Origin: Escherichia coli
Lineage (GTDB): Bacteria > Pseudomonadota > Gammaproteobacteria > Enterobacterales > Enterobacteriaceae
NCBI RefSeq assembly: GCF_009931435.1
Contig: NZ_CP043414.1
Strand: one strand, 5' to 3'
DNA length: 64,000 nt
In this document: positions 1-29,169 of the stretch, one piece after another
Layout: each line of letters opens with the position of its first letter
How positions within the stretch are numbered: the stretch's first letter is position 1
Program-made: the position numbers and the translations under genes
The notes under the pieces: model-generated
Seen by the model: the letters and a program-made list of their open reading frames with translations, nothing else
What the model was told of the DNA's origin: nothing
Database searches by the model: none

Positions 1-1324
1 CGCGCGCGGAGGCCTCTTCGATCATTCGTTTTGGCAGACCTGCTTCGATCGCTTTCGCCATGCCACCGGCTTCGTCGATCTGTTGGGTAATGGCTCTGGC
101 TTGTTTGACGATTTGATCGGTCAGCGATTCAACGTAATAGGATCCGGCCAGTGGATCGACGGTGCGGCAGAGTTCTGATTCTTCCTGAATGATGATCTGG
201 GTATTGCGGGCAATGCGTGCTGAGAAATCGGTAGGCAAACCAAGCGCTTCATCAAAGGCGTTGGTATGCAGTGACTGAGTACCGCCCAGCGTTGCAGCCA
301 GTGCTTCAATGGTGGTGCGGATAACGTTGTTATACGGATCCTGTTCAGTCAGGCTCCAGCCTGAGGTCTGGCAGTGGGTACGCAGCGCCAGTGATTTCGG
401 ATCCTGTGCGCCAAATCCACTGACCGCTTCGCTCCATAAATAACGTGCCGCACGCAACATGGCGACGTTCATAAACAGATCCATGCCAATACCGAAGAAA
501 AACGACAGGCGAGGAGCGAAGTCATCAATTTTCAGCCCAGCGGAGATTGCTGCTTTGATGTACTCAATCCCATCAGCGAGCGTAAATGCTACCTGCTGCA
601 CGCAGTTGGCACCCGCTTCACCCATATGGTAACCGCTGATACTGATGGTATTAAATCGCGGCATGTTGCCGGAACACCAGGCGATGATGTCTGCGATAAT
701 ACGCATTGACGGTTTTGGCGGGTAAATATAGGTGTTGCGGCAAAGATACTCTTTGAGGATATCGTTTTGAATGGTGCCGGTCAGTTTATCGGGTGTAACA
801 CCTTGCTCTTCTGCGGCGACAATATAAAACGCCAGTACTGGTAGTACTGCGCCATTCATGGTCATCGAAACCGACATTTTATCCAGCGGGATCTGGTCGA
901 ACAGGACTTTCATATCTTCCACGGTGTCGATAGCAACGCCCGCTTTGCCGACGTCGCCCGCCACGCGCGGGTTATCGGAGTCGTAGCCACGGTGGGTGGC
1001 AAGGTCAAACGCAACGGAAAGACCTTTTTGCCCGGCGGCCAGGTTACGGCGATAAAAAGCGTTGGACTCTTTTGCTGTTGAAAATCCAGCATACTGACGG
1101 ATGGTCCACGGTTGGGCGGTATACATAGTGGCACGCGGGCCACGAACGTAGGGCGGCAAACCAGGAAGGGTACCTGTCACTTCCAGATTATCGAGATCGG
1201 CTTCAGTATACAGCGGCTTGATGGCGATCCCTTCTGCGGTTTGTTGAACCAGCGAGTCGACAGTTTTCTCCCGACGACTCAATTCCTTGTTGGCAATCTG
1301 TTGCCACTCCTGCACGTTAGACAT
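1..1324 (-). CDS. sbm: Methylmalonyl-CoA mutase, N-terminal 441 codons (3-prime end runs off window start)
   Basis: Reverse-strand translation from ATG at 1322-1324 reads [20 protein letters not shown]; frame stays open to position 1 (ends ...[27 protein letters not shown]). Absent from ORF track because it is edge-truncated. Confidence 0.9.
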
Positions 1325-17125: not shown

Positions 17126-18586
<1,461 letters not shown>

Positions 18587-18603
18587 TTACAGGAAATAGT
18601 ACC

Positions 18604-18915
18604 ATGCAGCCAAACGACATCACTTTTTTTCAACGTTTCCAGGATGACATTCTGGCTGGTCGTAAAACCATCACCATCCGCGACGAGTCTGAATCGCACT
18701 TCAAAACGGGTGATGTGCTTCGTGTCGGGCGTTTTGAAGATGACGGTTATTTTTGCACGATTGAAGTCACCGCAACCTCAACCGTAACGCTGGATACACT
18801 GACGGAAAAACATGCAGAGCAGGAAAATATGACCCTGACTGATCTGAAAAAGGTCATTGCCGATATCTATCCCGGCCAGACACAGTTTTATGTGATTGAA
18901 TTTAAATGCCTTTAA
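18604..18915 (+). CDS. yqfB: ASCH-domain protein YqfB (N4-acetylcytidine amidohydrolase)
   Basis: Track ORF 103 aa, recognised YqfB sequence. Confidence 0.88.
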
Positions 18916-19075
18916 ATTGAACTCACGCCTGTTAGTTGAAATTTCGCATTTAATTTCATGATTTTTCGGAGATTAGTCTCAAATCAGAATTTATTTTAGC
19001 TAACAGGTGTTCACTGGAACTATTCTCAGTTACGCTGGAGAGGTATACATGTGCGTGTACGTTTCTCCGGAGTAA

Positions 19076-19738
<663 letters not shown>

Positions 19739-28598: not shown

Positions 28599-28626
28599 CC
28601 CCGGCAAATGTCGGGGTTTTTTATTT
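28599..28626 (+). terminator. Rho-independent terminator after lysS (overlaps idi stop)
   Basis: Stem ccccggcaaatgtcgggg followed by T-run. Confidence 0.85.
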
Positions 28627-29169
28627 AAGCTGGGTAAATGCAGATAATCGTTTTCTGGCTTCGCGATTTGTCGCCTGCATCACCATCCACGGACTGAACG
28701 CCCACGGCGTGGCATCAATACCGCGTAAAACCGCTGCTAAATCACACCATTGATAATCCATCACTTCATCATCGTTGATCTGTAACGCACTGGTCGTGCG
28801 TGCGGCAAATACCGGACATACTTCATTTTCTACAATGCCATTCGGATCGGTGGCGCGGTAGCGAAAGTCAGGATAGACCGGTTCTGGTGCTGTTATTTCC
28901 ACACCCAGTTCAAAGCGGCAACGGCGGATCACCGCGTATTCGTTGCTTTCGCCCAGTTGTGGGTGCCCACAAACCGAGTTAGTCCACACGCCCGGCCATG
29001 CTTTTTTGCTAAGGGCGCGGCGGGTAACTAATAATTGCCCTTTGGCATTAAACAGCCAGCAGGAGAACGCGAGATGTAAGAGAGTGTCTGCCGTGTGTGC
29101 GGCATACTTTTCCAGCGTACCCGTGGGAACTCCCTGTGCATTCAATAAAATGACGTGTTCCGTTTGCAT
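28621..29169 (-). CDS. idi: Isopentenyl-diphosphate delta-isomerase (Nudix type I)
   Basis: Track ORF 182 aa, recognised Idi sequence. Confidence 0.93.

Follow-up and report, generated by a model that had tools for sequence, protein, structure and literature searches.

An inverted repeat upstream of trhA in Escherichia coli probably reflects a known FabR operator and a second, FabR-like box

The spacer between yqfB and trhA (yqfA) in Escherichia coli carries an inverted repeat that is real and conserved, yet is no entity in its own right. The repeat is probably a by-product of two mirror-oriented FabR-type operators, namely the operator already known to control trhA (O1) and a second, degenerate FabR-like box close behind the yqfB stop codon (O2), which would be auxiliary to O1. 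Judged from its sequence and from its retention in related genera, O2 is a probable auxiliary FabR operator that is apparently undescribed. The literature searched, a scope that leaves the primary FabR binding papers and RegPrecise outside, holds no mention of a second FabR site at trhA/yqfA, and no high-resolution FabR binding map was found in it; the novelty of O2 is provisional.

The inverted repeat in the yqfB-trhA spacer

The features on which the argument turns lie within the window, that is, the whole stretch of 64,000 nucleotides that was analysed, and are as follows.

17126-18583, minus strand: bglA, on an E. coli-type chromosome
18604-18915, plus strand: yqfB coding sequence, the co-oriented neighbour 5' of trhA
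18920-18937, unstranded: O2 (AACTCACGCCTGTTAGTT), a degenerate FabR-like box whose binding is putative
18928-18935, plus strand: left arm of the repeat (CCTGTTAG), a perfect 8-bp arm within the right half of O2
18998-19015, unstranded: O1 (AGCTAACAGGTGTTCACT), the validated FabR operator of the trhA/yqfA promoter
19000-19007, plus strand: right arm of the repeat (CTAACAGG), a perfect 8-bp arm within the left half of O1
19079-19738, plus strand: trhA (yqfA) coding sequence, the regulated gene

The repeat had been assigned by the first-pass annotation to the yqfB-yqfA spacer, and both flanking genes are indeed those named; yqfA is currently called trhA in RefSeq (PAQR family membrane homeostasis protein). 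The spacer is 163 nt long (18916-19078) and differs from that of E. coli K-12 MG1655 by a single base, at 18967, which is outside either arm. Published K-12 experiments are thus directly applicable to it. A scan of 18500-19300 identified no terminator-like site, and thus none between yqfB and trhA, so that co-transcription of the two genes in E. coli is possible.

An inverted repeat is present where it had been noted, although the spans originally given for its arms (18927-18936 and 18998-19007) are shifted by about one base; the intervening DNA is AT-rich as described (75% A+T), but the gap separating the perfect 8-bp arms is 64 nt and not ~62. The 8-bp core by itself is not significant, because about 17-19% of 163-nt stretches carry one: when the spacer was shuffled by mononucleotides, 16.6% of the shuffles contained a perfect inverted repeat of 8 bp or longer, as did 18.9% of the real 163-nt slices taken from the window. 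When the arms are extended to 18 nt each (18925-18942 and 18993-19010), they agree at 15 of 18 positions by Watson-Crick matching (83% complementarity), a value attained by only 1 of 300 shuffles (~0.3%, P ~0.003). Given this rarity and an RNA folding z-score of -5.6 for the region, the extended repeat is more than chance.

As exact 8-mers the arms are poorly kept among relatives, the left one occurring in 3 and the right one in 27 of 80 loci, and in E. albertii the left arm is broken (CCCGTTAG). Conservation of the arms holds instead for the underlying motif, whose positions AC..TGT..G are invariant in the aligned segments.

A separate 13-nt inverted repeat (92%; 18897-18909 and 18946-18958) spans the yqfB stop and encloses O2. 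It was rejected as a structure or terminator, being weak as RNA (z = -1.2) and unconserved in relatives.

A known FabR operator and a second FabR-like box

O1 is already known as a member of the FabR operator set. The reported right arm falls within it, in the half that reads AGCTAACA. O1 fits the FabR core that has been proposed (ACAnnTGTnnnnT; PMC4804515), together with the AGC../..GCT outer positions, exactly, is identical at 15 of 18 positions to the E. coli fabA and fabB operators as read from K-12, and is by far the top FabR-like hit of a position weight matrix (PWM) in the 64-kb window. The sole other PWM hit in the window, at 29114-29131 (AGCGTACCCGTGGGAACT, 10.4 bits), is inside an open reading frame on the minus strand (28621-29169) and is probably due to chance. 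The O1 core is found upstream of trhA in 78 of 80 orthologous loci, ranging from Escherichia to Erwinia, Pantoea and Pectobacterium.

Experimental evidence for O1 comes from several species. FabR occupies the yqfA promoter in vivo in Salmonella, as determined by ChIP (PMC4804515), and loss of fabR derepresses yqfA in both Salmonella and Klebsiella (PMC4804515; PMC11481535), as it does trhA in E. coli (PMC9017321). Mutagenesis of the E. coli site made use of the primer CAGAATTTATTTTAGCTAgtgGGTGTTCACTGGAAC, which introduces ACA>GTG (PMC9017321); this primer is the same as window positions 18981-19016 except at A19003, C19004 and A19005, all of which belong to the right arm. The change at 19003-19005 raised trhA expression and abolished both the effect of deleting fabR and the repression by oleate (PMC9017321). 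FabR binds O1 and represses trhA, as it represses fabA and fabB, and the repression is stronger when unsaturated acyl ligands are present.

O1 overlaps the inferred -35 element and the spacer of the trhA promoter, whereas O2 lies outside this core promoter. The promoter elements, and the islands of conserved sequence between the two boxes, are listed below.

18938-18997, unstranded: A+T-rich inter-operator spacer (60 bp, 75% A+T)
about 18951-18954, unstranded: TAA(C) island, conserved in the spacer, outside the FabR core
18959-18963, unstranded: TGATT island, invariant in the spacer, outside the FabR core
18991-18997, unstranded: TTATTTT, invariant, where an UP element would sit
19008-19013, plus strand: inferred trhA -35 element, TGTTCA, in the right half of O1 and 17 nt upstream of TAnnCT
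19021-19026, plus strand: alternative -10 element, TATTCT
19031-19036, plus strand: inferred trhA -10 element, TACGCT, a conserved TAnnCT hexamer

A consensus scan identified no canonical sigma-70 site. The TAnnCT hexamer keeps a constant spacing to O1 in almost all of 79 O1-bearing loci (CAGGCT takes its place in L079), and the Pantoea counterpart of the -35 element is TGTACA. From these elements we infer that transcription of trhA starts near 19043, downstream of both arms of the repeat.

The spacer islands could represent a -35-like element or a site for another factor. Readings of the TGAAA, TGATT and TGTAAC islands as sites for sigma-32, sigma-E, Fur, CRP or PhoP gave no convincing match by inspection. 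The spacer of Klebsiella, Raoultella and Trabulsiella (L015, L016, L026 and L029) contains a symmetric TGTAAC..N19..GTTACA pair. Further downstream, the E. coli 5'-UTR has a hairpin (GGAGAGGUAUACA...UGUACGUUUCUCC; 19037-19072) that abuts the Shine-Dalgarno sequence GGAG (19069-19072); RNAalifold found no consensus 5'-UTR structure in 20 relatives, and the hairpin may be lineage-specific.

O2 begins 5 nt past the yqfB stop, and its centre lies 78 bp upstream of that of O1. Read on the opposite strand, the right half of O2 (TGTTAGTT) gives the left half of O1; it is one base off the right half of the fabA operator (TGTTAGCT). The E. coli copy of the box, ACGccTGTtagtT, has one core mismatch, ACG for ACA, in which a G replaces the A found in every validated site, and its outer left half is poor. 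Twelve of its 18 positions agree with the fabA operator (P = 3.9e-4 per 18-mer; ~0.06 expected per spacer), a match that must be considered borderline across all spacer positions. An asymmetric PWM derived from the O1 orthologues over-fitted the right half of O1 and placed E. coli O2 at -4.1; it was replaced by a symmetric half-site PWM and by direct comparison with the fabA and fabB operators. Under the symmetric PWM, from whose training set O2 was absent, E. coli O2 scores 3.3 bits versus 24.6 for O1 and ranks 21st among 63,983 window positions. O2 also resembles AACT...TGTT, but its interpretation as a FadR site was rejected by inspection on account of its register (14 nt versus 17 nt).

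The O2 sequence is identical in the window, in K-12 and in locus L001, and E. albertii has lost the TGT core (CGT). To judge from these sequences, O2 has drifted in Escherichia and looks to be decaying, and it probably contributes little there.

Among the relatives, an AC[A/G]nnTGT core within 120 nt upstream of O1 was identified in 47 of 79 loci, versus ~3% expected. The offsets of this second core cluster at 75-78 nt (38 of the 79 loci) and at 64-66 nt (6 loci), and the best symmetric-PWM hit in the 90 nt upstream of O1 reaches a shuffle p <= 0.05 at an offset of 75-79 nt in 33 loci. The Kluyvera versions of O2 (TGCGTACATGTGTTAGCT and AGTGTACACCTGTTAGCT) share 16 of 18 positions with the fabA operator validated in E. 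coli (P < 5e-6 per 18-mer), and the strict FabR core is present in the O2 of Kluyvera, some Citrobacter, some Enterobacter and K. spallanzanii. More generally, an O2-type box is kept across Citrobacter, Klebsiella, Enterobacter, Salmonella, Kluyvera and others, and is near-consensus in some genera.

Thirty-eight segments from more than 12 genera were aligned. The invariant columns of the O2 region (A, C, G, T and G), together with a nearly invariant T, correspond to the AC..TGT..G positions of FabR sites; of the five invariant columns, four coincide with one of the six positions of the ACA/TGT core (hypergeometric P ~0.02). The distance between O2 and O1 is held within ~1.5 bp (75-78 bp) despite a diverged central spacer (alignment columns 27-76), in which pairwise identity between genus representatives is 51%. 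Because O2 is located past the yqfB stop codon, coding constraint is no explanation for it.

O2 is missing from the orthologous trhA loci of Cedecea, Buttiauxella, Pantoea and Erwinia and from most of those of Kosakonia. A weak box at 64-66 nt occurs in one Kosakonia locus and in one unclassified metagenome-assembled genome; the loci of this distance class are L034, L036, L049, L050, L054 and L055, of which L050 and L055 are convincing and the other four weak. In Cedecea colo (L066), a core is located 40 nt upstream of O1. Six loci from Superficieibacter, several Enterobacter and Phytobacter massiliensis (L003, L012, L020, L022, L025 and L033) lack yqfB, which is replaced by a divergent gene for an RpiR-like HTH regulator (~500-1290, minus strand). 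O2 is retained, though weaker, in these six loci. Since it persists without yqfB, O2 belongs to the trhA control region.

A proposed operator pair and competing explanations

FabR, a dimer of the TetR family, recognises an 18-bp imperfect palindrome with the half-site AGC[G/T][T/A]ACA. In the model that we consider probable, O1 in its left half and O2 in its right half carry this same half-site on opposite strands, and the arms of the repeat are complementary because one half-site is read in both directions. The earlier suggestion of a dimeric regulator site was thus right in spirit, in that both arms are parts of FabR-type operators. A single dimer site cannot have the two arms as its half-sites, however, since a gap of 64 nt is much too large for it. 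FabR responds to unsaturated acyl ligands by binding O1 over the -35 element and promoter spacer, and so represses trhA. O2, ~77 bp upstream and at roughly -115, may recruit a second FabR dimer and thereby raise the occupancy of O1, either via cooperative contacts across the bendable A+T-rich spacer or through a higher local concentration of repressor.

The published mutagenesis limits what O2 could do. Mutation of O1 alone abolished all FabR dependence in E. coli constructs that probably included O2 (PMC9017321), the cloning primer of those constructs starting at ~18822. Thus, O2 is insufficient for repression, and its role, if any, is auxiliary.

A more elaborate version of the model, in which O1 and O2 act as a pair by holding two FabR dimers ~7 helical turns apart in a loop or wrapped complex, and so tune how sensitively trhA responds to the unsaturated-to-saturated ratio of acyl chains, is a tentative idea and rather doubtful. 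The second distance class (64-66 bp) is about one helical turn shorter than the first (75-78 bp), although it is made up of few lineages that are maybe not independent, and the two classes hint at a phasing constraint. A distance of 77 bp corresponds to 7.3 turns at 10.5 bp per turn and would be in phase only at ~11 bp per turn in vivo. We know of no FabR tetramers, and of no FabR looping or oligomerisation beyond the dimer. The operator model, moreover, gives no reason for the complementarity to reach 4-5 bp outside the boxes (TGAAA against TTTTA), as it does.

The alternative that retains the most weight, though it seems unlikely on the whole, is that O2 in E. coli is a non-functional relic, whether of a decaying ancestral FabR box or of an ancestral inverted duplication of O1, and that the repeat is functionless here. 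The low score of E. coli O2 relative to O1, its ACG for ACA, its degenerate outer left half, the additional loss of the TGT core in E. albertii and the disappearance of FabR control on mutation of O1 alone (PMC9017321) are all consistent with a relic. Conversely, the core positions of O2 are invariant in 38 sequences from more than 12 genera while the surrounding spacer is ~50% identical, and the box is the same in the window, K-12 and L001. Moreover, it is typical of auxiliary operators, lac O3 among them, to be weak and to have no effect alone.

The first-pass annotation also raised the possibility of a long-range stem, and an RNA structure is indeed predicted on thermodynamic grounds. Folded as RNA, positions 18920-19015 have a minimum free energy (MFE) of -28.9 kcal/mol (z = -5.6), which none of 200 shuffles equals, with the extended arms forming the two sides of the stem.

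18925-18941, plus strand: extended left arm, 5' side of a predicted 17-bp stem
18994-19010, plus strand: extended right arm, 3' side of the predicted 17-bp stem

In 35 of 39 relatives the MFE fold includes pairing between the two boxes (median z = -3.6 across the 39), and in-register cells are paired in 77.5% of cases versus 32-45% when the partners are slid. This pairing runs past the boxes into the flanking TGAAA and TTTTA, and the frequent variants of O2 (A>G, C/U) retain wobble pairs. These features, and the fact that no terminator separates yqfB from trhA, would fit a stem made up of 17 bp and an inner helix (~86 nt), formed in RNA that reads through from yqfB into trhA, which could serve as a processing site, a stabiliser of the 3' end of yqfB mRNA or an insulator between the two cistrons.

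Such a role is improbable, however, because two copies of a palindromic operator are mutually complementary and pair automatically, which accounts for the complementarity of the stem in relatives. The covariation score is equal to the shuffled expectation (0.090 versus 0.089, with ~235 of 500 shuffles matching the observed value) and 4 double-change pairs were found versus 4.7 expected, albeit with low power in both cases since the O1 arm hardly varies. The few columns in which O1 differs show either no compensation or an inconsistent one: a G at position 4 of O1 is accompanied by a compensating C in O2 in 3 of 9 loci, and the O1 change in Kluyvera leads to T.T mismatches in the stem. The complementarity therefore comes from column composition and not from co-variation. 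RNAalifold gives no consensus long stem (-0.16 kcal/mol), and there is no match to an Rfam family. The transcript that would carry the stem is equally questionable, as the inferred trhA start is 3' of both arms and O2 is kept in the six loci with a divergent upstream gene, where there would be no read-through RNA. Like intergenic hairpins and intrinsic terminators, the predicted hairpin is long, stable and located right after a stop codon; it differs from them in lacking a U-tract (the right arm is followed by GTGTTCACTGG) and a G+C-rich stem, in showing neither an Rfam family nor covariation, and in having a loop of ~50 nt.

It is similarly hard to credit that O2 is a site for FabR, or for another factor, with a separate job, either at a second promoter within the spacer (with TTGAAA or TTGATT as a -35-like element) or as a roadblock to read-through from yqfB. 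The conserved TGAAA beside O2 and the invariant TGATT (18959-18963) do resemble -35 elements, and yqfB has no terminator after it. Neither -35-like element, though, is followed by an acceptable -10 element in E. coli (scan and manual inspection), O2 persists beside a divergent upstream gene where there is nothing to block, and the FabR dependence of E. coli trhA maps wholly to O1 (PMC9017321). Finally, a chance match, for which the frequency of 8-bp repeats alone in such spacers might speak, or a single dimeric regulator with the two 8-bp arms as its half-sites is highly improbable, as the extended repeat is rare in shuffles and its place is conserved across genera, while the gap is incompatible with one dimer and each arm lies in its own 18-bp palindrome.

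Known operator systems and implications for the FabR regulon

Among the FabR (YijC) operators of fabA, fabB and yqfA/trhA, O1 is the known yqfA member. O2 resembles these operators in being an 18-bp imperfect palindrome with an AC(A)nnTGT core and a half-site close in sequence to the right half of the fabA operator; it differs from them in its location, ~115 bp upstream of the inferred start and off the core promoter, and in its poorly conserved outer left half. The fabA and fabB promoters, in contrast to that of trhA, have a FadR site beside the FabR box and no second FabR box.

Auxiliary operators that work with a main operator are established for lac (O3/O1), gal (OE/OI) and deo. O2 resembles weak auxiliary operators such as lac O3, being a weak upstream copy at a conserved distance from a main operator that overlaps the promoter; further likenesses are the A+T-rich, bendable DNA in between, the lack of effect of the weak copy alone and the two distance classes about one turn apart. 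The repressors of lac, gal and deo are proven tetramers or bridged dimers, whereas FabR is a dimer and is not known to loop, and membership of O2 in a looping system is not claimed on the strength of this analogy.

DesT of Pseudomonas aeruginosa is a FabR homologue, a TetR-family sensor of the saturation state of acyl-CoA. Its operator is a palindrome whose half-sites are of the GAACA/TGTTC type, as is the right half of O1 (TGTTCACT), but it controls another regulon (desCB) in another group of organisms. To our knowledge, no paired-operator architecture exists for DesT.

The more important half of the repeat already has an explanation: through O1, which is proven as a FabR operator, the bacterial PAQR homologue trhA belongs to the unsaturated-fatty-acid regulon. 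What is new is a FabR-type box at a fixed distance upstream of O1, a small but concrete refinement of a well-studied regulon. If O2 is non-functional, the repeat amounts to a known operator plus a relic. Joint action of O1 and O2, if true, would give FabR its first example of an auxiliary-operator or looping architecture, and might underlie both the 'complex binding' and the disagreement among reports as to whether yqfA is under FabR control. A functional O2 would make trhA unique among known FabR targets in having paired operators; this arrangement might account for differences among species and strains in the strength of FabR control of trhA, and would provide a handle on cooperativity in a TetR-family lipid sensor.
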